Shown: in pieces, positions 1 through 59,913 of the stretch
Position numbering within the stretch: position 1 is the stretch's first letter
Layout of the letters: the number at the start of each line of letters is the position of its first letter
Assembly (NCBI GenBank): GCA_050250895.1
Contig: JBFWNU010000001.1
Coordinates: 2,342,210 to 2,406,209, forward strand
Reading direction: 5' to 3'
Length of the DNA: 64,000 bases
Source: Vulcanimicrobiota bacterium
GTDB lineage: Bacteria; Vulcanimicrobiota; Xenobia; Xenobiales; JADMJV01
The notes under the pieces: model-generated
What the model saw: only the letters and a program-made list of their open reading frames with translations
The model's database searches: none
Told to the model about the DNA's origin: nothing
Program-made: the position numbers and the translations under genes

Positions 1-532
1 CTTGACCCGGGGGCGCTCACGCTTAGGTATTTTCATGCGGGCCATCAAAGCCGCCGCCACCGGGTTCTCGCGCCGAGCGAAATCGCGCCAGGCCAGCCGT
101 TTGAGGTGAATCGCTCGAAACTCGAATACCAGTGGGGTGAAGCCGAGGGTGGTGACAACGTATCTTTCTGGAACGGACTGCCTGGTGGTGGAGTATGAGA
201 ACACGGCGATCGGATAGACGGGCAGCCCGTAGCGCTCGTGGAGAATGTTCCAGTAGCGAAACATCCGGCGGGCGAAGTCGTCGTCGTGCTGGGCTTGATG
301 CTCGACGTGGACCAGGCAGAAGGCCGGACTTCCGGCCACTGCGACCCGGGCCACGAGGTCGGCCTCGCGACGGTCGCCCAGGCCCAGTTCGGTGAACATC
401 TCCTTGTCGAAGAACTCGATCGAGGCCGGGTCGATGGCCTCGGCGACCTCGGGCAGAAACAGCTCGAGGAATTCGTAGAGAAAGAGGGTTAGCAGCTCTT
501 TGAAGAGGCGGTCGTGACGTTTTCGCATGGCG
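1..532 (-). CDS. Rpn/YhgA-like PD-(D/E)XK recombination-promoting nuclease / putative transposase (Transposase_31 / DUF4351 family); 3' end truncated by the window edge
   Basis: My own translation of the minus strand from ATG at 532 reads MRKRHDRLFKELLTLFLYEFLELFLPEVAEAIDPASIEFFDKEMF...LVHVEHQAQHDDDFARRMFRYWNILHERYGLPVYPIAVFSYS...NPVAAALMARMKIP. It is open to position 1. The HDxLFK start and the H-x-E-x-Q-S/A core are typical of the Rpn family. It is absent from the ORF track because no stop codon lies in the window. Confidence 0.6.
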
Positions 533-879
533 TCTCCAATCTCGGTCGTCGGCGACCGGAATTGGTGCCTCTTCTTGGAGTGCCCGGGGGCTCCCGTCGA
601 TGGAATTGTGAACTTTGTGGAGCCATTCTTTCGCTAGCGAACGCACTGGTCCGAATACCACCTGCCGAATGGCCCAGCTCAGCCCGGCCCACCTCGACGT
701 CAAGGCGTGGGGGCTGGCGATCGCCCACTCCGGCTGGGGGACCACTCCGGTGGGGCCAAGGCTGGGCGGACGGCCGAGAGCTGGCCGCTGCCCACCCCGC
801 CGCGCCTACGGCGGGTAAGCTGGCGCCCTAGTCCTGGCTTGGTGGGCGCTTTTTAGGTCACCGCGGAGATACGCGGGGC

Positions 880-1330
880 GCGCGGAGTTGGGTGCATTTG
901 AGTCGGATGGAGCACGCTCTGGCGTTGAGGCCCGGAGAGGGCTGTGCGGGGTGGGGCCAAGGTCGGCCGGGAGCGGCCTGGCCACACTGCCGAACGGCCC
1001 ATCCGCCCCTGCCCCGGCGACTCGGCAGCACACGCTGCCGAATTCGGCGTACCACGTGCCGAATGGCCGGCCCGTTTCGACCCGGCGAGGTTGTGGGCGT
1101 GGTGGCCGGCGGCCGGGAGCTAGCGATCCCCCACTCCGGGTGGGGCCAGGGTTGGAGGCTAGCGATCGCCCACTCCGGCTGGGGGATTTCGCCCACTCCG
1201 GGTGGGGCCAGGGTTGGAGGCTAGCGATCGCCCACTCCGGCTGGGGGATTTCGCCCACTCCGGGTGGGGCCAGGGTTGGCCGGGAGCGGCCTGGCCACAC
1301 TGCCGAACGGCCCGGCCCGCTTTCCCCGGG
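880..1330. repeat. Repeat-rich intergenic region. A 62-bp tandem repeat occurs about 2.4 times at 1131-1280 and contains GCGATCGC. A 36-bp exact direct repeat lies at 965-1000 and 1278-1313. A GCCGAATTCGGC palindrome lies near 1037-1048. The 15-mer TACCACGTGCCGAAT near 1050-1064 recurs in inverted orientation at 23297-23311 and 23420-23434.
   Basis: Direct reading of the sequence. Period 62 comes from the recurrence of CCACTCCGGGTGGGGCCAGGGTTGGAGGCTAGCGATCGCCCACTCCGGCTGGGGGATTTCGC. Confidence 0.8.
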
Positions 1331-1482
1331 GTGCCAAACTTGAAAAGACATTGTAACAAGCCAGCTACATCCAGGCCGTCATTTTGACTGGCTGGAAACT
1401 GGGGCCTGGTATCTTAAAGACACACAGAACCACGTTAGCGGAGTTGGTTCCTAGCGGACCACTCGTTCATATATAAATCGTC

Positions 1483-1516
1483 AAAACCGAGCCCGAACCC
1501 AATCTGGCTCGGTTTT
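1483..1516. terminator. Perfect 11-bp-stem hairpin AAAACCGAGCC-N12-GGCTCGGTTTT with an A-run on one side and a T-run on the other (bidirectional intrinsic-terminator-like). It overlaps the annotated TTG start of the kinase.
   Basis: Inverted repeat read directly from the sequence. It is followed by TTTTGCTTATG on the plus strand and by TTTTGACGATTT on the minus strand. Confidence 0.5.
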
Positions 1517-3758
1517 GCTTATGACCGGGGGTCACAGGGCCCACCTTGTCAAACTGTGCCTTGTGGACCCGTCAGAGACGGTGGACGTCACCCATAACAC
1601 CTTGAGCGTCGCCCGGCTCAACTCGGGGGGCGGGCCCAAGCCCGAGATACCCGGCTATAAGCTCGGCGATCGGCTGGGCCGCGGCGCCTTCGGCGAGGCC
1701 TATCGGGCTACTCAGCTGAGCACCGGTCAAGAGGTGGCGGTCAAGGTGCTGGTCTCGGTCAGCGGCCGATTTCGCGACGAGGTCGAGCGCCTTTCGCAGG
1801 TCAGCGACCACACCCACATCGTGACCCTGGTCGACGCCCAGCTCGACCATGACCCGCCTTATCTGGTCACTCCGCTTTTTAGCGGCTCGCTCCTGGATGA
1901 GGTACCCCGCCAGCCCAGCGAGGCCGACATCGAGAAGGTCTGCAGCTGGCTGCGGCAGCTGGCCGGAGCCCTCGACTACATGCACCGCCGCGGTATTCTG
2001 CACTGCGATGTCAAGCCGGCCAACGTGCTGCTCGACCGCGAAGGCAACGCCCGCCTCACCGATTTCGGCCAGGCGACCCTGCGCGACCAGAGCGAGCTTC
2101 GCCTCGGCAGTTTCTGGTTTATGCCCTGGCAGCAGGCCGAGGGAGGCCTGCCCGAGGTGACCTGGGACCTCTATGCCCTGGGAGCCACCGCCTACGCCCT
2201 CTTGACCGGCGTGCCCCCGTGCTGGTCAAAGCAAGAACAGGTAGAGTTGCAGGCCCTGACCGGCGTCGCTGAACAGGTGAAGAGATACCGGCAGGCGCTA
2301 GAGCGACCCGTCACTCCCATTCGCCAGCTCAACCCGGCCGTTGACCCTGAACTGGCTTGTATCGTCGAGTACTGTCTAAAGCTCGACCAGGGCTATGGCA
2401 GCGCCAGCGAGATCCTGTCAGACCTTGACCGCCGTGACCAGAAACGACCGCTGGCCGCGCGGCCGTTCTCGCGTGGCTACTGGCTGGAGCGGTTCGTGAC
2501 CCGCAACCGACTGAGCGTGGCGGTGGGCCTGATCGCCGTGGCCGTGCTGCTGGTCGGCTTGAGCCTCTCGTCTTATGAGGTCTACAAAGCGCGTCAGGCT
2601 CGTCAGCTCTTGATCGAGCAACGCTTCGAGCAGGGCCGCTCGATGATCGACAACGGCCAAGCCACCGGGCTGGTGTGGCTGGCCGAGGCCTACCAACTCA
2701 GCGGTCGGTCCGACTATCAGCTGGCCCTGCGCCAGGCCCTGGCCCGCCAGATGCAGATTGCCGACCCCTCGCTCTATCGCTTGCGAACGGCCACGGCCCC
2801 GAGCCCCAGCGGACGGTGGGCCATCTGGACCAATCCCGCCAACCTCCAACGCGTTCTCGTCGACCTTCGCGACGGCTCGACCGGACCGTTGCCGGCCAAC
2901 TTCTTCGGAGCCCAGCGCGAGCAGAAAGACAGGCTGCGCTATCGGCTCGATGGTATCGTGCTCGACCCCAGCCTTCCCTCGCCCGTGCCCGGCACCTGGG
3001 CCATGCGCTCTTTTGACAGCGCTCACCCCGACCAGCACGGAGCCAGCCTGGCTCTTCACCTGGCCCCCACCGGAGCTTTGCGAGCCGTGCGGGTCGACCA
3101 CGGAATCCAGGTCCAGAACGCCGCCGGCAAGGTGCTGGTCAGGGCCGAGCGCCCGGGCAAGGTGCCCCAGAGCCCCGTCTTTTCACTGCAGGGCGAACTG
3201 GCCGTGGCCTGGGAGGACGGCCAGATCAACCTCTACACCAAGGCCGAGACCAAAACCATCGACACCGACTTCGTGGCTGGTTTTCTCTGCTTTAGCCCCG
3301 ATGGTCAGTTTCTGGCCGGCAGTGGCTGGGATGCTCCTCGAGTGCGCGTCTGGACCCGCCAGGGAGCCAAAGTGGCCGACTTTTCCATCAGTGCGCCCGT
3401 GACCGATATGGTCTTCGACCAAGCTTCGCAGCTGGTGGTGTGCGCCACCCGAGTCGGTCTGGTTCACGGCTACTCGCTCATAGACCAGCAGCCTGCCTGG
3501 CCGCCCATCGAACTCGAGAACCCGGCTCGCTGGATCTACGTTCAAGAAGGCGGCCAGATCGTCACCATGTCGGATGAGGTGATGGTCTGGAAACTGCCCG
3601 AACCGCTCAACGACTCGCTGGTGAGCGCCGAAGAACTCAAGCGAGAAATCTCGCGGCGGACCGGCTGGCTCTATGACGAGAAGGCCCGGGTGAGAACCTT
3701 GAGCCGCTCAGAATACCTCGAGCGCTACGCCCCGAAAACCGTCAAGACAGCGAAATAA
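1515..3758 (+). CDS. Hanks-type Ser/Thr protein kinase with a transmembrane segment and a C-terminal beta-propeller-like extracytoplasmic domain
   Basis: G-loop LGRGAFGEAY, VAVK, catalytic HCDVKPANVLL and DFG are present. A hydrophobic segment LSVAVGLIAVAVLLVGLSL follows the kinase domain, then about 400 aa of repetitive beta-rich sequence. The start is uncertain: TTG at 1515, ATG at 1521, or a later GTG. Confidence 0.8.
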   Translation: MLMTGGHRAHLVKLCLVDPSETVDVTHNTLSVARLNSGGGPKPEIPGYKLGDRLGRGAFGEAYRATQLSTGQEVAVKVLVSVSGRFRDEVERLSQVSDHTHIVTLVDAQLDHDPPYLVTPLFSGSLLDEVPRQPSEADIEKVCSWLRQLAGALDYMHRRGILHCDVKPANVLLDREGNARLTDFGQATLRDQSELRLGSFWFMPWQQAEGGLPEVTWDLYALGATAYALLTGVPPCWSKQEQVELQALTGVAEQVKRYRQALERPVTPIRQLNPAVDPELACIVEYCLKLDQGYGSASEILSDLDRRDQKRPLAARPFSRGYWLERFVTRNRLSVAVGLIAVAVLLVGLSLSSYEVYKARQARQLLIEQRFEQGRSMIDNGQATGLVWLAEAYQLSGRSDYQLALRQALARQMQIADPSLYRLRTATAPSPSGRWAIWTNPANLQRVLVDLRDGSTGPLPANFFGAQREQKDRLRYRLDGIVLDPSLPSPVPGTWAMRSFDSAHPDQHGASLALHLAPTGALRAVRVDHGIQVQNAAGKVLVRAERPGKVPQSPVFSLQGELAVAWEDGQINLYTKAETKTIDTDFVAGFLCFSPDGQFLAGSGWDAPRVRVWTRQGAKVADFSISAPVTDMVFDQASQLVVCATRVGLVHGYSLIDQQPAWPPIELENPARWIYVQEGGQIVTMSDEVMVWKLPEPLNDSLVSAEELKREISRRTGWLYDEKARVRTLSRSEYLERYAPKTVKTAK

Positions 3759-5256
3759 GGGCTCTCTGATAGGCCTCTTCCAGGGCCAGGGAAGGCTCCA
3801 TCTGCAAGTCGGCGGCCAGCTGCTTGCGACACTCTTCGAAGTGACGCACCGCCTGCTCGGGACGACCCAGCCCCATCAATGCACTCATGCAGACCAGTCG
3901 ACTGGCCTGACAGCACGGCTCGAGCTCAAGACTCAGCTCGCCAAACTTGAGGGCCAGCTCGAGACGCTCGCTCTGCAAAGCCGCCTGCGCCACCCGCTGA
4001 TAGGCCAGCTGCATCTCGCCTTCGAGCTTGGTGCGGGTGTGAGCGGCCCAGTCGAGATAGCAGCCCTCGAGGTAGGGACCGACATACAGCTCCAGCAACC
4101 GCTGGCCGGCGCTCAGCGCCTGGTCGGGGTCGGCCGCGGCAATGGTCGCCAACAACGACTCGACCTCGCAGTAGTCGTGCCAGAAGTCGAGGCCCTCGTC
4201 GAGGCGATAGCCAGTGTGATTGCGTGGGATGGGGTTTGACTCGAGCCCATCCTGACGCAGGCTGTTGCGAAGCTTGGACAGAGCCACCATCAGGCTGCGC
4301 CGAGCCCGATTGCCCTTGCCCGGCCAGAACGCTTCCATCAGCCGGTCCTCGGTCACCGTCTGCTGGGCCGAGGCAAGATACGAGAGCAACCACGACAGCT
4401 GCTTGCCGCCCCAGCCCTCATCGAGCCTGACCCCACCCATGTGGGCCTCGAACTCGCCCAGGCTCTTGATGCGAAGGCCTTCACCGGGAGCCTTGCCGGT
4501 CTTGAGTTGGCGAGCGGCCAGATGATCGCTGACCATCTGGGCCAGCAGGCAATAACCGCCCCGCTCGAGCGGGTCGGCCGCGAAGTGGCCAACGGCATAG
4601 AGCACCAGGCGCGTCTGGCCTGAGCCGATCGGCACCGCCAGGGCCCAGCTCTCGTTCTGATTGGCCGTCGGCTGGTCGTGGGCCGGCCCGATCCATTCGT
4701 AGAAGACCGGAGCCTGCTGCTGGAGAGCTTGGGACACAAGGCTACGGCTTGGTGTTAGCGGGCCGGTTGTTTTTAGGGTTTCGTCGAACAGGCCCACGCG
4801 GGCCTTCGGCAAGACCTGGTTGAGGCGGGCGACGAGTTCTGGGACCGGCGTGTTCTCGTCTAGGATCGGTTGCACCTCGAGCATCAGCGCCATCACTTGC
4901 TCCGCCGGCCTCTGACGGGCCTGGTGCAGGTCGTCATCGGTGACCGTCTGGGCCAGCTCGGAGAGCAGCTCGAAGACCGTCTCGGCCACGCAGAACCTGC
5001 CGCCGGGGAGCAGCTCGAAGCGGTCACGCTCTTCTTGCTCGGTGAAGATAGGGGACCGGCTGCCATCGCGCCAGACCACGATGTGCGACTGCTTCACTTC
5101 TAGCCTGGCCGTGCGCCGGGAGAGCTTGGGGTCGAAGGGGATGGCCAGCTTGTCGTCGGGATCGTGGGGAGTGGAGCGTCCGAGCTGATAGAGCCCCGGC
5201 TGTAGTTCGAAGTGCGCCGTCGCCAGCGACGTCATGTGAGTGGCCCACAGGATCAC
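3742..5256 (-). CDS. FHA-domain SARP/AfsR-type transcriptional regulator (N-terminal FHA, central domain, C-terminal OmpR/PhoB-type winged HTH plus BTAD)
   Basis: FHA signature LYQLGRS...SRRTARLEV...VVWRDGSRSPIF. The SARP DNA-binding region reads LRIKSLGEFEAHMGGVRL...GGKQLSWLLSYLA...LMEAFWPG...ARRSLMVALSKLRNSL, followed by TPR-like BTAD helices. It converges on the kinase and overlaps its 3' end by 17 nt. Confidence 0.65.
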   Translation of the reverse strand: MILWATHMTSLATAHFELQPGLYQLGRSTPHDPDDKLAIPFDPKLSRRTARLEVKQSHIVVWRDGSRSPIFTEQEERDRFELLPGGRFCVAETVFELLSELAQTVTDDDLHQARQRPAEQVMALMLEVQPILDENTPVPELVARLNQVLPKARVGLFDETLKTTGPLTPSRSLVSQALQQQAPVFYEWIGPAHDQPTANQNESWALAVPIGSGQTRLVLYAVGHFAADPLERGGYCLLAQMVSDHLAARQLKTGKAPGEGLRIKSLGEFEAHMGGVRLDEGWGGKQLSWLLSYLASAQQTVTEDRLMEAFWPGKGNRARRSLMVALSKLRNSLRQDGLESNPIPRNHTGYRLDEGLDFWHDYCEVESLLATIAAADPDQALSAGQRLLELYVGPYLEGCYLDWAAHTRTKLEGEMQLAYQRVAQAALQSERLELALKFGELSLELEPCCQASRLVCMSALMGLGRPEQAVRHFEECRKQLAADLQMEPSLALEEAYQRALISLS

Positions 5257-23154: not shown

Positions 23155-23283
23155 GTGGGTGCTGGCTGGGGTTTAGCGCGGAGATCACGCCGAGGACGCG
23201 AGGTCGCGGAGAGGGCGGCTCGAGGCGCAAGGGGACGCTCTTGCGATTTTTATGGCTTGCTTGAGCTCGGCAGAACCGCCGGC

Positions 23284-23540
23284 CAGGTGGTGCCGGATTC
23301 GGCACGTGGTAGCGCCGTACTCGGCCGAGGTTGCTCTTCCGTGCGGAAGTCGGCTTGCCCGCGACCGTGGTCGAGCCACCCAGGCTGGTCGGCGGCGGTA
23401 CGGCACCAGGTGGTGCCGGATTCGGCACGTGGTAGCGCCGTACTCGGCCGAGGATGCTCTTCCGTGCGGAAGTCGGCTTGCCCGCGACCGTGGTCGAGCC
23501 ACCCAGGCTGCCGGCGGCGGTACGGCACCAGGTGGTCGCC
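23284..23540. repeat. Tandem repeat of about 123 bp with about 2.1 copies. Each unit contains the hairpin GTGCCGgattCGGCAC.
   Basis: Read directly. The unit starts CAGGTGGTGCCGGATTCGGCACGTGGTAGCGCCGTACTCGGCCGAGG. It is related to motifs at 1037-1064. Confidence 0.75.
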
Positions 23541-23923
23541 AGGACGCTCACCCCACGCCCCCAAAGCCCTCTCCGTGCCCTCCTGATCTCCGCGGTTTAC
23601 TTCTCAGGCGCGCCACTGGCGAGCCGCACCGACCTGTGCTTCGACCACGCGCCGCGCCGCCACGACAGACGCGCCGCGGTATTCCCAATCTCGTGCGCCC
23701 AGCCCCCCTCAGCGCCTTTGCGAGCTCTGCGGTTTTGTCAACGAGCGCTGCCCTCGGCCAACGCCCACCTCTCCGTGAACTCCGAGACCTCCGTGTTGGT
23801 ACGCCAGCCCCCGCGCCCCCCGCGGAACTCCGCGGTGCCCCCAAAAGCGCCTGCCTTCGAGATACTTCGCCCCTCGAGGCGCCTTTGCGACCTTGGCGGT
23901 TTTCCCCACCAGCCCTCCACTGG

Positions 23924-23953
23924 CTTGACCGTCAAAAGGCCTGTCGATATACT
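23924..23953 (+). promoter_or_regulatory. Sigma70-like promoter TTGACC-N17-TATACT ending about 17 nt before the miaB ATG (short or absent leader)
   Basis: Read directly; coordinates are accurate to about 1 nt. Confidence 0.5.
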
Positions 23954-23969
23954 GCACTGGGTGAATGCG

Positions 23970-32818: not shown

Positions 32819-33415
<597 letters not shown>

Positions 33416-34788: not shown

Positions 34789-35550
34789 ATGAGCTGCTTG
34801 GTGTCTGAATCTGCCACTGCCCAATCCGAGAATTCCCGTCTGGCCTACGGACGAATTTTGCTGAAGCTGTCGGGCGAGGTCTTCGCCGGCTCGGCCGAAT
34901 TCGGCGTCGACAGCAACACGGTCCGTCGCTACGCCGAAGAGATCCGCGAGATCTATGAGCTGGGCGTGCAGGTTGCCGTGGTCGTGGGGGGAGGCAACAT
35001 CTGGCGCGGCCGAATGGCCCCCGACATGGAGCGGGCCACCGCCGACCAGATGGGCATGATTGCCACCGTGATCAACGCTCTGGCCCTGCAGGATGCGCTC
35101 GAGAAATGCGATGTGCACACCCGCGTGCTCACGGCCATCGAGATGAAGGATGTGGCCGAGCCGTTCATTCGCCGCAAAGCCGTTCGCCATCTCGAGAAGG
35201 GTCGGGTGGTCATTTTCGCCGGCGGTATCGGCAGCCCGTATTTTACCACCGACACCACGGCTGCCCTGCGCGGACTCGAAATCGGCGCCGACGCCATTTT
35301 CAAAGGCACCAAGGTCGACGGGGTCTACGATGGGGACCCTGTCCTCAACCCGGATGCCAAGAAGTTTCAGCAACTCACTTACATTGAAGTTTTGCGTCTG
35401 GGCCTCAAGGTCATGGACGCCACCGCCGTGTCGCTTTGCATGGACAATCGTCTGGCGATCGTCGTGTTCGACATCACCCAGGAGGGCAATATTCGGCGCA
35501 TCGTGGCCGGCGAAGAAATCGGAACATTGGTCAAGGAGGAGCGCAAGTAA
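34789..35550 (+). CDS. pyrH: UMP kinase
   Basis: Internal ATG after the GGAGGAGAA RBS, followed by [20 protein letters not shown]...[11 protein letters not shown]. Confidence 0.9.
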
Positions 35551-43813: not shown

Positions 43814-44017
43814 ATGTCCGTCTATAAAATGACCGAAATTGTGGGAGTGTCCAGCGAGAGCTTTGCCGATGCTATCGAAAAAGCCATCGCCGAGGCCACC
43901 AAAGCGGTTGGACGGATGGCCTGGTTCGAGGTGGCCGAGCAGCGCGGAACCATCGAGATGGGCCAGATTCGCGAGTATCAGGTCAAGCTTAACGTGGGCT
44001 TTCGCATCTCAGACTAG
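43814..44017 (+). CDS. Dodecin (flavin-binding small protein)
   Basis: The 67-aa protein MSVYKMTEIVGVSSESFADAIEKAIAEATKAVGRMAWFEVAEQRGTIEMGQIREYQVKLNVGFRISD matches the dodecin pattern. Confidence 0.8.
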   Translation: MSVYKMTEIVGVSSESFADAIEKAIAEATKAVGRMAWFEVAEQRGTIEMGQIREYQVKLNVGFRISD

Positions 44018-45155
44018 CGCCGGGGCCTTCGATCGGCTGAATCCAGGCCGCCTCGGTTTCGGGCGGGCGCGACGAGTTCTCTTTAGGTTGTGACGAACTG
44101 ACCTTGGCCCGCAGATAGAGTTCGTCCCCGGCGAAGTGATAACCGGGCTCGGTGCCTTCGACGATGGCCAGCACCTCGGCCGGTTGGCCGCCCCGGCTGC
44201 CGATGAATTGGGTCGAATATTCCACTCCGGGAGTCGGCTTGATGGTCAGCTGCATCCCCGTCGCGAAGCTTTCGATAGCGGCCAGTTCCACGCCCGTGCT
44301 GGAGTAGAATTGGCCGTCCTTCATCGCCGCCATCAGCGAGTTGGCCGAAAGCTCGTCGGCCTCCACCATGACCCAGCCCCGGCCCGGGTTGCTCTGGGCG
44401 GGGTCCAGCCGGTGATAGTCGTGAGCGTCGTCGGTGGCCAGACCATAAACCAAACTGTCTCCCTGGCACAGCCTCCCCACCAGGGCTTGGTCCCACAGCT
44501 TTTCGGTGCTCGCGTGGTTGGCGTCGCCCGCGTCGGCCGACAACCAGTGCCCGTTGTAAGCCTCGAAGAAGACCGGCTCGTCGGTCCTTAGCTGGATGAG
44601 GTCGCTGGCATTGAGGGTGTAGTGGTAGTTGGGATGGTTGATGACCACCAGGTCGGCGGCCTGGGAGGCCAGTTGGTGGTCGCGGTTGAGCTTTTCCCCG
44701 GCGGTTTCGCCCCCCAGCGGAGCGAGCGGGTGGTCAAGGTTGTGGGCGTTGAGGTGAAGGTGCTCGCTGTCGGTCAGTTCCTCGCTCTGGATGAGCAGGA
44801 ACTGGTCGGGCTGCTCGAACTTGTCCCGGTACTCTGCTAACGTCTTGAGGCGAACCTGGCCGTCGGGCCGCTGTTCGACCCACTGGTCACCGAACTCCTG
44901 GCGATAGCGCTCGACCTTGTCGGGGCTGGTGCCGACCCACTTTTCTCCCTCTTGCAGCCGATTGTGCTCGGTCAAAGCGAGAAAGTGATAGCCGCGTTGC
45001 TGGTAGTCATCGACGGCCTGCTCGGGAAAAGCCTGGCCATCGCTCCACAGGGTATGGGTGTGCATGTTGCCCTTGTACCAGTTGGGTGCCGCCTGGGCCG
45101 AGACGAACGGCGTCACCGCCATCATGGCTGCACACACCAGGCTTCGCGTCTTCAT
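43989..45155 (-). CDS. Secreted PHP-domain metal-dependent hydrolase (CehA/McbA-like)
   Basis: Signal peptide, then NMHTHTLWSDG and LALTEHN, which are PHP metal-binding motifs. Confidence 0.7.
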   Translation of the reverse strand: MKTRSLVCAAMMAVTPFVSAQAAPNWYKGNMHTHTLWSDGQAFPEQAVDDYQQRGYHFLALTEHNRLQEGEKWVGTSPDKVERYRQEFGDQWVEQRPDGQVRLKTLAEYRDKFEQPDQFLLIQSEELTDSEHLHLNAHNLDHPLAPLGGETAGEKLNRDHQLASQAADLVVINHPNYHYTLNASDLIQLRTDEPVFFEAYNGHWLSADAGDANHASTEKLWDQALVGRLCQGDSLVYGLATDDAHDYHRLDPAQSNPGRGWVMVEADELSANSLMAAMKDGQFYSSTGVELAAIESFATGMQLTIKPTPGVEYSTQFIGSRGGQPAEVLAIVEGTEPGYHFAGDELYLRAKVSSSQPKENSSRPPETEAAWIQPIEGPGASLRCESPR

Positions 45156-45237
45156 GGCCTTAGCTTAGAGAAGCCGTGTCACGACCTCGTTAAACCCGGC
45201 CCGGTCTTCGGTCTCTTCCCGCGATCTTTCCCCGAGG

Positions 45238-45318
45238 TCCCCCACTCCGTCCCACCTATCCCACTTCGCCCCACTCACCCCACTATGCCCCACCACCTCC
45301 ACTTCATCCCACCCGCCA
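45238..45318. repeat. Short-period CCCAC(T)-rich tract: about 8 tandem units of 8-11 bp
   Basis: cccactccgt cccacctat cccacttcg ccccactca ccccactatg ccccaccacct ccacttcat cccacccgcc, read directly. It lies between clpS and the PHP hydrolase start. Confidence 0.7.
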
Positions 45319-45360
45319 ACCGGGCTTCTACCGTCTACCGACTGAGCCAACGACGGAAAA

Positions 45361-45666
45361 CTAGAAGTCGTCGACTTCGACCTGTAAGCCGTGGCTGCGC
45401 AACTGGGCCGCTACCCGGTGGCACTTCTCGCGAGTGCCTTCGTAGCAGACGGCTCGGCCCTGAGTGTGGGCGGTGTGGGTCACGTGGCTGGCCACCTCGT
45501 GGGAGCAGCCGGTCGCTTTCTGGATCCAGAGCACCACGTCGTCAAACTTGTGGACGTGGTCGTTGTAGAGAATCACCCGCCAGTTCCTTTCCGGGCGGGA
45601 TTTTCTTTCGGTGTCCTGATGGGTCTGCGTATCCGGAAGTGCGGTGCTCACGTCGCCAACCATCAT
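45361..45666 (-). CDS. clpS: ATP-dependent Clp protease adaptor ClpS
   Basis: WRVILYNDHVHKFDDVVLWIQKATGCSHEVASHVTHTAHTQGRAVC aligns with the ClpS core [24 protein letters not shown]...AVHYQGKAIC. Confidence 0.75.
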   Translation of the reverse strand: MMVGDVSTALPDTQTHQDTERKSRPERNWRVILYNDHVHKFDDVVLWIQKATGCSHEVASHVTHTAHTQGRAVCYEGTREKCHRVAAQLRSHGLQVEVDDF

Positions 45667-45892: not shown

Positions 45893-45922
45893 TTGACAGC
45901 GATTCACGGCCGTGCTTATAAT
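45893..45922 (+). promoter_or_regulatory. Consensus sigma70 promoter TTGACA-N18-TATAAT (Pmra) upstream of mraZ
   Basis: Read directly. Sequence just upstream is AT-rich. Confidence 0.6.
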
Positions 45923-45923
45923 T

Positions 45924-45950
45924 GTGGGGCGAGGTGGGGCAAAGTGGAGG
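45924..45950 (+). promoter_or_regulatory. Three direct TGGGG-like repeats at 10-bp spacing (GTGGGGC-gag-GTGGGGC-aaa-GTGGAGG); putative MraZ operator
   Basis: Matches the published TGGGN-N5 x3 MraZ binding architecture. Located between the -10 element and the mraZ start. Confidence 0.55.
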
Positions 45951-50090: not shown

Positions 50091-51653
50091 GTGAAGTTGG
50101 CTGATTTGGCGACAAGCCTTGGGGCGACCAGCATCCACGGTGACCTGGATACGGAGATCACGGGGGTTGCCTATGACTCCCGAAAGGTTCAGCCAGGTGA
50201 CCTTTTCGTCTGTATCCCCGGCTTTCAATCCGACGGCCACGACTTCGCGCAGAAAGCCGCTGACGCTGGGGCGGCCGCGCTGGTGATCGAGCGCTCCGTC
50301 GACCTGACCACGGCCGTGCCCAGTTTGCGGGTGGCTTCGGCCCGCCGCGCCCTGGCGACGGCGGCAGCGTCTCTGGCTGACTATCCGGCTCGCAAGCTTT
50401 TGACCGTGGGCATTACCGGCACCAACGGCAAGACCTCGACGGCCTATCTCTGTCAGGCCGTCTTGCGTGAAGGCGGCTTTCGTCCCGGCTTGATCGGCAC
50501 CATCCACGCCCTGGTAGGCGAGCGGGTGGTGCCGTTGCGCAATACTACTCCCGAATCGGCCGACTTGCAGGGCCTTTTGGGCGAGATGGTCGAGGCCGAA
50601 CTCGACGCCGTGGTCATGGAAGTTTCGTCCCACGCTCTGGTGCTCGAACGCACCCACGATCTGCCCTTCGATGTCGGCGTTTTTACCAACCTCACCCAGG
50701 ACCACCTCGACTTCCATCAGACCATGGAAAACTACTTCCAGGCCAAAATGGAGCTCTTCCGCCAGTTGGGTAACGACTGGAGCCGGGTGACCACTCCCTT
50801 TGCCGTCATCAATCTCGATGACGAGTATGCCCGGCGGATCCTGCCCGAGTTGCAGGTTCCCTACGTTACTTACGGTTTCCATCCCGATGCCCATGTGCGG
50901 GCCACCGACCTCGAGGTCAGCCCCGCTGGCGTGAGCTACACCGTTTCGACTCCGGTCGGCGAAGAGCGGGTCGAGCTGCAACTGTCGGGTCTGTTCAACG
51001 TCCAGAACTCCCTGGCCGCCATTTCGGCCGGCCTGGCCCAGCGCATCGACCTGACCGACGCCGTGCGCGGAGTCGAATCGGTACCGGGCGTTCGAGGCCG
51101 CTTCGAGCTGGTGCGCGAGGGCCAGGATTATACCGTGGTGGTCGACTATGCCCACACCCCCGACGGGCTCGAGAATCTGCTCACTTCCGCCCGCCAGGTC
51201 ACTCGCGGACGGTTGCTGACGGTCTTCGGGTGCGGTGGCGATCGCGATGCGGCCAAGCGACCCATGATGGGCGAGATCGCCGGGCGTCTCTCCGACCATG
51301 TCATCGCCACCTCCGACAATCCTCGTAGCGAACAGCCAGAGACCATTCTCGATGCCATCGAGAAAGGGCTTGCCCCGACCGGCGTCAGCTATGAGCGCGA
51401 GGCGGACCGGGCCAGCGCCATCGGGCGCGCCATCGGCATGGCTGGCCCTGGCGACACCGTGGTGATTGCCGGCAAGGGCCACGAGAATTATCAGATCTTT
51501 GCCGATCGGACCATCCACTTCGACGATGTCGAGGTTGCCGGTCAGGCCATTCGAGTTCGCCTGGGAAAGGGCGGTAAGCCGGCGAGCCGCACTAACGATC
51601 AGGCCTGGACCGAGCGCCGCCGCACCACTGCGGCCCTGGAGCAAACAAGATAA
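50091..51653 (+). CDS. murE: UDP-N-acetylmuramoyl-L-alanyl-D-glutamate--2,6-diaminopimelate ligase
   Basis: GITGTNGKTST P-loop. The DNPR motif (ATSDNPRSE) indicates meso-DAP specificity. Confidence 0.9.
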   Translation: MKLADLATSLGATSIHGDLDTEITGVAYDSRKVQPGDLFVCIPGFQSDGHDFAQKAADAGAAALVIERSVDLTTAVPSLRVASARRALATAAASLADYPARKLLTVGITGTNGKTSTAYLCQAVLREGGFRPGLIGTIHALVGERVVPLRNTTPESADLQGLLGEMVEAELDAVVMEVSSHALVLERTHDLPFDVGVFTNLTQDHLDFHQTMENYFQAKMELFRQLGNDWSRVTTPFAVINLDDEYARRILPELQVPYVTYGFHPDAHVRATDLEVSPAGVSYTVSTPVGEERVELQLSGLFNVQNSLAAISAGLAQRIDLTDAVRGVESVPGVRGRFELVREGQDYTVVVDYAHTPDGLENLLTSARQVTRGRLLTVFGCGGDRDAAKRPMMGEIAGRLSDHVIATSDNPRSEQPETILDAIEKGLAPTGVSYEREADRASAIGRAIGMAGPGDTVVIAGKGHENYQIFADRTIHFDDVEVAGQAIRVRLGKGGKPASRTNDQAWTERRRTTAALEQTR

Positions 51654-59405: not shown

Positions 59406-59913
59406 AGTAGCTCTCGGCCTGCGGCCGACGAGGAGCGTCGGCTTCGCCGCCGGATTTCGACGCTGCGCGTCGACAGGGAGCGCCGACTTCGTCGTCGGGA
59501 GAAGGAGCCGTGCGCTTCGCGCGGAGATTTCGGCCTTCGGCCGACGAGGAGCGTCGGCTTCGCCGCCGGGATTTCGACGCTGCGCGTCGACAGGGAGCCC
59601 CGACTTCGTCGTCGGGAGAAGGAGCCGAGCGCTTCGCGCGGAGATTTCGGCCTTCGGCCGACAGGGAGAGCCGCTAGCGCCGCTAGAAATCTCTCTCGGA
59701 GGGAGCGGTAGCGACTGACGCTCCTTTCTCGGCCGCAGGCCGCTCCTTTTCCCGTGAGCGAAGCGAGCGCTCCTTTTCCCGGGCCGTTCCTTTCCCCGTG
59801 AGCGAAGCGAGCGCTCCTCTCTCGGCCGCAGGCCGCTCCTTTCCCCACGGGAAGGGAATTTTTTTCAAGTTCGCGAAGAATGGCTGACATGGCTGTTTCA
59901 AGGCCATGAAGAA
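59405..59913. repeat. Complex repeat-rich spacer between murC and ftsQ. A tandem repeat of about 116 bp occurs about 2.3 times at 59423-59680. It is followed by mirrored motifs in A-B...B-A order at 59727-59845 (A=CTCGGCCGCAGGCCGCTCCT, B=CCCGTGAGCGAAGCGAGCGCTCC).
   Basis: Read directly. Motif A is the reverse complement of CTCGGCCTGCGGCCGAG at 59411-59427. Confidence 0.75.

Follow-up and report, generated by a model that had tools for sequence, protein, structure and literature searches.

Within a 64-kb stretch of the genome of a Vulcanimicrobiota bacterium (hereafter the window, meaning the whole of the DNA analysed, 64,000 nucleotides at 62.6% GC), the spacer between a minus-strand Rpn/YhgA-like gene and a divergent, plus-strand WD40 Ser/Thr kinase gene carries a repeat block of ~700 bases (about 651–1345, 72% GC). 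We read this block, with a probability of roughly 0.55, as non-coding, lineage-specific spacer DNA which has grown by nested local duplication and serves no dedicated function. The block is an ordered mosaic of repeat units that codes for no protein, is absent from the relatives and databases searched, and is kin to a second repeat block upstream of miaB. Lineage-specific repeats of this sort, tandem and dispersed, are commonplace between bacterial genes; the uncultured lineage that carries them is the unusual part, and nothing here points to a new molecular system.

The repeat block, its limits, and its kin

The initial annotation described ~1 kb (540–1514) as built of repeats, which stands for about 651–1345, whereas 529–650 and about 1350–1562 are unique and conserved. 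Alignment and blastn self-comparison resolve the block into units in the order D (TACCAC[CG]TGCCGAATGGCC), x, A (GCGATC[GC]CCCACTCCGG[CG]TGGGG...), B (GGTGGGGCCA[AG]GG[CT]TGG), and C, with the D-x-A-B-C unit spanning ~150–290 nt and present as two diverged direct copies, U1 (651–800) and U2 (1040–1345). The A, B, C, and D units of the block all share one orientation, and the features that follow are given on the plus strand. U1 comprises D′ (656–674, TACCACCTGCCGAATGGCC), x, A (717–741, GCGATCGCCCACTCCGGCTGGGGGA), B′ (742–769), and a degenerate C-like tail, and aligns with U2 across D, x, A, and B, with blastn pairing 703–769 with 1210–1283 (81%) and 656–674 with 1050–1068 (95%). A middle segment, M (801–948), includes 845–885 (GCGCTTTTTAGGTCACCGCGGAGATACGCGGGGCGCGCGGAG) and 929–956 (CCCGGAGAGGGCT...), both of which match the miaB-upstream block in inverted, collinear order, and a perfect 10-nt inverted repeat lies at 791–800 and 946–955. 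Blastn and alignment then identify a partial third copy (949–1020), made up of the B-tail and C. The start of U2 (1036–1068), as read from the sequence, consists of the perfect 12-nt palindrome GCCGAATTCGGC (1036–1047) followed by D (1050–1068, TACCACGTGCCGAATGGCC), beyond which lie the A/B array (1120–1279, located by Tandem Repeats Finder, TRF) and a B-tail and C (1262–1345), the latter seen by blastn and in the short-read contig L001 and forming the right edge of the block.

The 62-bp tandem, the 36-nt direct repeat, and the GCCGAA-type palindromes reported by the initial annotation are all borne out. TRF places the tandem at 1130–1279, with 2.4 copies, 100% matches, and a score of 300, whilst in-register copies of the unit lie at 1127–1188, 1189–1250 (98%), and 1251–1312 (partial), with a diverged copy at 682–743 (68%). 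Each 62-bp unit holds two direct copies of CGCCCACTCCGG[GC]TGGGG. The 36-nt repeat GGCCGGGAGCGGCCTGGCCACACTGCCGAACGGCCC is perfect, with its first copy (965–1000) in the partial third unit and its second (1278–1313), 313 nt away, in the C of U2, and it is nested in a 69-nt repeat of 86–88% identity (949–1017 and 1262–1330). All four window sites of the motif TGCCGAA[CT]GGCC fall in this region. The octamer GCGATCGC, previously thought confined to the tandem, has four sites in the window (717, 1162, 1224, and 51238), two of them in the tandem and that at 51238 outside the region altogether, and it is not enriched (2.99 sites expected; 35/100 shuffles reach 4). Small stems (CCCCAC/GTGGGG, GCCGAATTCGGC, and GGCCG/CGGCC) occur in the units, with hairpin potential near that of shuffled sequence (z of −0.5 to −2.8); the 62-bp unit folds weakly better than shuffles (z of −1.8 and −2.8), and the whole block gives a z of ~−2 on either strand.

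The limits of the block are set by comparison with two relatives. A contig (L083) from a close relative (GCA_020431725.1; kinase identity 92%, Rpn identity 90%) matches the window through Rpn and 120 nt upstream, with similarity ending at ~650 and giving way to a VapBC pair and another Rpn gene, such that the Rpn-side region (529–650, minus strand, promoter and 5′ untranslated region) aligns at ~83% upstream of the 90%-identical Rpn. On the other side, the kinase leader (1350–1562, plus strand) is kept upstream of a 73%-identical kinase orthologue in a more distant relative (L085) with the same kinase-BTAD arrangement, aligning from about 1350 to the kinase start, and the upstream neighbour of that orthologue is an SDR gene. 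The edges of the block thus coincide with the ends of conservation to L083 on the left and L085 on the right, and the block sits at a synteny breakpoint between two self-contained promoter-proximal regions. Neither the kinase orthologue of L085 nor the close homologue of Rpn on L083 has the block upstream, which argues that neither Rpn nor the kinase needs it.

That the region is free of genes, its long open reading frames (ORFs) being artefacts of GC content, agrees with the initial annotation. The GC of the block ORFs is flat by codon position (0.70/0.71/0.71), compared with 0.64–0.70/0.39–0.46/0.79–0.82 in real genes here, the ORFs have no Pfam match, and a 1,464-aa concatenated six-frame query of the block found no relative among 5.8 billion proteins, ruling out a coding sequence or pseudogene. 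Furthermore, the 62-nt period is not a multiple of 3. A known RNA identity is likewise ruled out, with Rfam 15 returning nothing at gathering score across the window (noise alone, E 1.9–9, in 400–1700 with E allowed up to 10) and no tRNA found. No promoter-like site was predicted in 300–1800, and the only terminator-like hairpin there belongs to the conserved kinase leader.

The kinship with the miaB leader proposed by the initial annotation is real, and extends beyond the 15-mer on which it was based. This 15-mer, TACCACGTGCCGAAT, is exact at 1050, has one mismatch at 656, and recurs inverted at 23297 and 23420 inside a 123-bp tandem, giving four matches where 0.11 are expected (0/100 shuffles reach 4). 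In total three collinear segments match in inverted orientation, with 845–885 paired with 23851–23811 (41 nt, 85%, E 3.6e-7), 929–956 with 23579–23551 (86%), and 1050–1064 with both 23434–23420 and 23311–23297. The best local alignment of one block with the other scores 29, against 15.2 +/- 1.6 and a maximum of 22 in 300 dinucleotide shuffles, none of which (0/300) reaches it. The miaB-upstream block (23155–23969, no strand assigned; TRF and blastn) contains the 41-nt shared segment at 23811–23851 and the 123-bp tandem (23283–23536, x2.1), which carries the inverted 15-mer twice and is surrounded by inverted arms of ~11+11 nt, CGCGGAGATCA...CGGAGAGGGC, at 23177–23219 and 23556–23592. In relatives miaB follows a different gene after ~50 nt, and the block upstream of it is therefore also lineage-specific and at a break in synteny; miaB has its own proximal TTGACC-N17-TATACT.

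Further copies were sought in the source genome across the window and ~1.4 kb past its right edge. Units A, B, and C are confined there to the block at 651–1345, and the D and M segments recur at a single further locus, that upstream of miaB. A 24-mer of A has no match in 185,579 GTDB species representatives, and a consensus pattern built from the 41-nt segment common to both blocks, with 24 bases specified, has a single match in JGI metagenomes, which lies inside a GC-rich coding region and was set aside as chance. Three viral scans and blastn against plasmids and phages gave nothing, and nothing similar to any of the window's four repeat blocks was seen in ~190 kb of sequence from Eremiobacterota relatives. 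A third locus suggested by GCCGAA matches at 34894 and 35009 was rejected, as these are chance matches within a gene whose coding sequence reads as pyrH (UMP kinase). The 9-mers common to three blocks (GGGATTTCG, CGGGGAAAG) are roughly as many as chance would give. The initial annotation had held that motifs absent elsewhere in the genome and without structured conservation would indicate a simple local duplication; most of the block is indeed local, whilst a minority of its motifs are dispersed.

Other long, GC-rich repeat blocks in this genome lie at 23155–23969, 45165–45320, and 59406–59890. The last of these, 485 nt inside the dcw cluster between murC and ftsQ, contains 117-bp (x2.1) and 44-bp (x2.7) tandems and many short GC hairpins. 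Its 44-bp family, unrelated to 651–1345, has an inverted copy 5.6 kb downstream (41 nt, 90%; contig L093, 5634–5674), ~1.4 kb beyond the right end of the window. Short-read contigs break exactly in these repeats: Logan contig L001 begins within the 36-mer, at 1284, and matches the window at 100% identity thereafter, and Logan contig L093 begins in the block 59406–59890 and ends in the 44-bp family copy (breaks at 59720 and about 65393). The genome hence carries at least two families of dispersed spacer repeats, both of which break short-read assemblies, and given the several blocks, the recurrence of the 44-bp family, and these contig breaks, repeat-laden spacers are a habit of this genome. 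Related Eremiobacterota genomes contain 26–36-bp tandem repeats rich in GACGACAGGAGCG-type words (L007 2705–2793 and 5195–5253; L009 6268–6366), which resemble the CGACGAGGAGCG words of the 117-bp unit.

Origin of the spacer and competing explanations

The course of events that we favour would begin with a rearrangement that put the multi-copy Rpn gene beside the kinase, creating the spacer. A small dispersed family may then have supplied the D and M segments, with local duplication subsequently giving U1, U2, and the partial B-C copy, and the newest event would be the perfect amplification of the 62-bp A/B tandem inside U2. The 100% identity of the tandem copies points to this amplification being recent, and it arose most plausibly by slipped-strand mispairing or by unequal recombination between short direct repeats, with copy number probably variable between strains. 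The block would then be fast-evolving spacer DNA, either tolerated filler or selfish DNA, which might incidentally form hairpins and space the two divergent promoters.

Several points weigh against this account. The neutrality of the block is inferred from its absence in relatives, and its copy number is that seen in 64 kb and ~1.4 kb of a 3.95-Mb contig rather than genome-wide. Additionally, the three collinear segments shared with the miaB-upstream block are incompatible with purely local duplication, and some dispersal process is therefore needed, whether transposition or ectopic recombination/conversion. Finally, CGCGGAGAT occurs at six sites in the window (862, 23177, 23586 on the minus strand, 59520, 59637, and 9531 on the minus strand) where 1.2 are expected, a number reached by 0/100 shuffles, and five of the six lie in long repeat-rich spacers of three blocks, which may point to a recurring word that is functional or mobile.

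The initial annotation saw in the shared motifs a MITE-like or REP-like element family (miniature inverted-repeat transposable elements, MITEs; repetitive extragenic palindromes, REPs), and the reading of the block as a pile-up of insertions of such non-autonomous mobile elements, moved by a transposase encoded elsewhere and then amplified in tandem, is possible, with the odds clearly against it. The block is extragenic, GC-rich, and partly palindromic (CCCCAC-TCCGG-GTGGGG, GCCGAATTCGGC, and GGCCG-GGAG-CGGCC), and its significant sharing with the miaB-upstream block requires a mechanism of dispersal. Furthermore, the miaB-upstream block has inverted arms around a tandem core, another family, unrelated to this one, has an inverted copy 5.6 kb away, synteny with relatives is lost at both blocks, and tandem arrays of REPINs (REP doublets forming hairpins) are known (PMC3337134). 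The features by which such a family may be tested nonetheless mostly fail, with the units all direct rather than inverted doublets, fold energies near those of shuffles, no target-site duplication bounding any unit, no terminal inverted repeats with target duplications bounding the block, and no Y1 or other transposase in the window besides Rpn. Nor is there a further copy of A, B, or C in the 64 kb, GTDB representatives lack the A 24-mer, and no translated copies appear among the 5.8 billion proteins.

It appears unlikely that the block is an array of binding sites controlling the divergent Rpn and kinase promoters, as well as miaB, although for the short shared motifs the common protein-binding site suggested by the initial annotation is conceivable. 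Candidate binders would be a dimeric regulator of CCCAC-N5-GTGGG or CCGCGG-N4-6-CCGCGG, the neighbouring regulator of the BTAD/SARP type (SARP, Streptomyces antibiotic regulatory protein), or MraZ. In keeping with such a role, the block lies between two divergent promoters, its motifs recur ahead of two genes and face the downstream gene the same way in both cases, a BTAD regulator gene adjoins the kinase, and its GTGGGG boxes look like the direct boxes that follow the mraZ promoter (45924–45949). However, the block is missing upstream of the close Rpn homologue and of the kinase orthologue, the latter keeping its own conserved 210-nt leader, and the perfect tandem copies point to recent amplification rather than to maintained sites. 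An MraZ operator array consists of direct GTGGG-type boxes phased ~10 nt apart (10–11 nt at the mraZ promoter here), whereas the boxes of the A/B array lie 23 and 39 nt apart in mixed orientation. SARP heptamer sites are phased at ~11 nt, which also differs from the spacing of the A/B boxes.

We consider improbable the broader proposal that D, M, and A/B, together with the unrelated 44-bp and 117-bp units, might represent an undescribed class of small mobile repeats of Xenobia-like Eremiobacterota, marking or causing synteny breakpoints and spread by a non-RAYT enzyme, conceivably the multi-copy Rpn PD-(D/E)XK nuclease. If a large family with defined ends were shown genome-wide, it would be the first population of repeat elements to be described from this uncultured phylum. 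The RpnA nuclease of E. coli shows little or no specificity for sequence (PMC5350276), and no such repeats adjoin the Rpn homologues of other genomes (L083, L084, L086–L088); for these reasons we see no evidence of Rpn acting on the repeats.

A structured or protein-sponging non-coding RNA, for instance one with minus-strand hairpins bearing GGA loops in the style of CsrB/RsmZ, is highly unlikely. The minus-strand A/B subunit CCCAC-CCGGA-GTGGG, with GGA in a 5-nt loop, does occur ~six times, and GGAG words are frequent in all the repeat blocks. Against this, the GGAG motifs switch strand from one part of the block to another, the whole-block fold has a z of only ~−2 on either strand, there is neither an Rfam match nor a predicted promoter, the sole terminator-like hairpin is that of the kinase leader, and no homologous sequences turned up for covariation. 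The MraZ, SARP, and CsrA-sponge ideas are not favoured on grounds of spacing, orientation, and lack of conservation. Least likely of all is an artefact of mis-joined or over-collapsed repeats. In its favour, the source is a metagenome-assembled genome (MAG), perfect tandem copies are a product of some assemblers, and independent support for the block starts only at 1284. Against it, the independent short-read contig L001 runs at 100% identity from 1284 out of the repeat and into the kinase leader, the ends of short-read contigs fall exactly at the repeat blocks as real multi-copy sequence would give, and the left block edge joins sequence conserved in L083.

The significance of the block lies chiefly in caution for annotation and assembly, with such spacer blocks yielding long false ORFs and breaking short-read assemblies. 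Repeat blocks also coincide with differences in gene order from relatives, and the perfect tandems are possible strain markers.

Flanking genes and neighbouring features

The Rpn gene starts at an ATG at 528 on the minus strand and matches Pfam Transposase_31, with many cyanobacterial relatives among its homologues. The kinase (plus strand, Pfam Pkinase) was previously taken to start at 1515, and GTG 1563 is more probable, judging by the L085 orthologue and by a 731-aa NCBI protein (P0121) to which the kinase is 100% identical, and which is labelled ‘Vulcanimicrobiota bacterium’ and is encoded on a 3.95-Mb contig of a MAG. The label Xenobiales is found on more distant kinase homologues, and the nearest MiaB proteins (70–83%) are from Eremiobacterota/Vulcanimicrobiota MAGs, some of them mislabelled.

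The kinase leader contains a promoter-like TTGACT (1384–1389)-N17-TGGTAT, conserved as TTGACT-N17-T[GA]GTA[TC], and a conserved motif, CTCGTTCATATATAA, shared with L085 in the form CTCGTT[CT]ATATATAA. The strongest structure of the region is a 12-bp hairpin in this leader at 1482–1517 (z = −6.3, 0/200 shuffles), which could be an attenuator, a terminator, or an operator; runs of A and T form part of the hairpin stem. The gene beside the kinase codes for a BTAD regulator (Pfam), and a WD40 kinase and BTAD/SARP-type regulator are adjacent in every case compared (L089, L090, L091, and L092 with window 1563–5256). In homologues with 54–58% kinase identity the regulator is divergent and upstream, across a spacer of 74–101 nt, and in the window and L085 it is convergent and downstream of the kinase, an organisation that looks like a conserved module with a flipped arrangement.

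Position 1 of the window corresponds to a point 2 nt from the end of contig L083, inside its Rpn gene. The ends of L083 (1–75 and 1795–1869) overlap by ~70 nt in an Rpn–VapBC–Rpn cycle (compare window 1–75), indicating that Rpn is multi-copy in that relative, and an assembly boundary caused by a repeat may lie at the window start or close to it.

The mraZ gene (Pfam MraZ) probably starts at GTG 45964, and upstream of it a promoter-like TTGACA (45893–45898)-N18-TATAAT (45917–45922) is followed by three direct boxes spaced exactly 10 nt apart (GTGGGG at 45924 and at 45934, GTGGAG at 45944), which together look like an MraZ operator. Some eight CCCAC boxes (GTGGG on the minus strand) with a period of 9.5–10 nt also lie at 45240–45313, between clpS (45361–45666, minus strand) and an unannotated minus-strand gene (43989–45155), and may form a second MraZ-type box array, outside the dcw promoter. 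Elsewhere in the window, the ORF at 32819–33415 is likely to encode elongation factor Ts.

Comparison with known repeat classes

The block resembles the REPs, bacterial interspersed mosaic elements (BIMEs), and REPINs of Pseudomonas and enterobacteria in being extragenic, with short GC-rich units, some dyad symmetry, tandem and dispersed copies, and a lineage-specific sequence. REPINs repeated in tandem are known from Pseudomonas and E. coli, and arrays with as many as five units have been described (PMC3337134). REPs and REPINs are, however, inverted doublets or, as in BIMEs, alternate in orientation, whereas the units at 651–1345 are all direct. A REP is an imperfect palindrome of ~20–40 nt that can form a stable hairpin; the units here carry small stems, and their palindromicity is weak. 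In addition, REPs and REPINs number tens to hundreds of extragenic copies, compared with the low copy number seen here within 64 kb, and they are accompanied by a REP-associated tyrosine transposase (RAYT, IS200-like Y1), none of which appears in the Pfam results and gene tables of the 64-kb window. REPs also lie at the 3′ ends of genes, and the block between divergent 5′ ends.

MITEs are similarly non-coding, a few hundred bp long, and located in spacers, and the miaB-upstream block shares with them its inverted arms around a core. In contrast, no terminal inverted repeats bound 651–1345, no target-site duplication is found at either inverted-repeat pair (791–800/946–955 and 23177–23219/23556–23592), and the window contains no related autonomous insertion sequence (IS), nor any transposase or IS other than Rpn. 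HIP1, the highly iterated palindrome of cyanobacteria, is the octamer GCGATCGC, which the A unit carries, extended to GGCGATCGCC at 717. Three of its four sites are nevertheless copies of one duplicated unit, the organism belongs to the Eremiobacterota, and with four sites against three expected in 64 kb a link to HIP1 or to cyanobacteria is ruled out.

Mycobacterial interspersed repetitive units (MIRUs), of the variable-number tandem repeat type, are, like the repeats described here, tandem units of 40–120 bp present in few copies in several intergenic spacers of a GC-rich genome, and also inside operons. The repeats described here differ from MIRUs in that the two are unrelated in sequence, the units of 62 and 44 bp have lengths not divisible by 3 and are without small overlapping ORFs, and the block at 651–1345 is a mosaic of several unit types rather than of one. 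Similar to MIRUs, the block at 59406–59890 lies inside a gene cluster, between murC and ftsQ, and near-perfect copies suggest variation in copy number. The tandem in the Rpn–kinase spacer, with a unit of 62 bp in 2.4 copies at 100% identity, has the form by which a bacterial intergenic tandem repeat is defined, namely a non-coding unit of 10–150 bp repeated head to tail.

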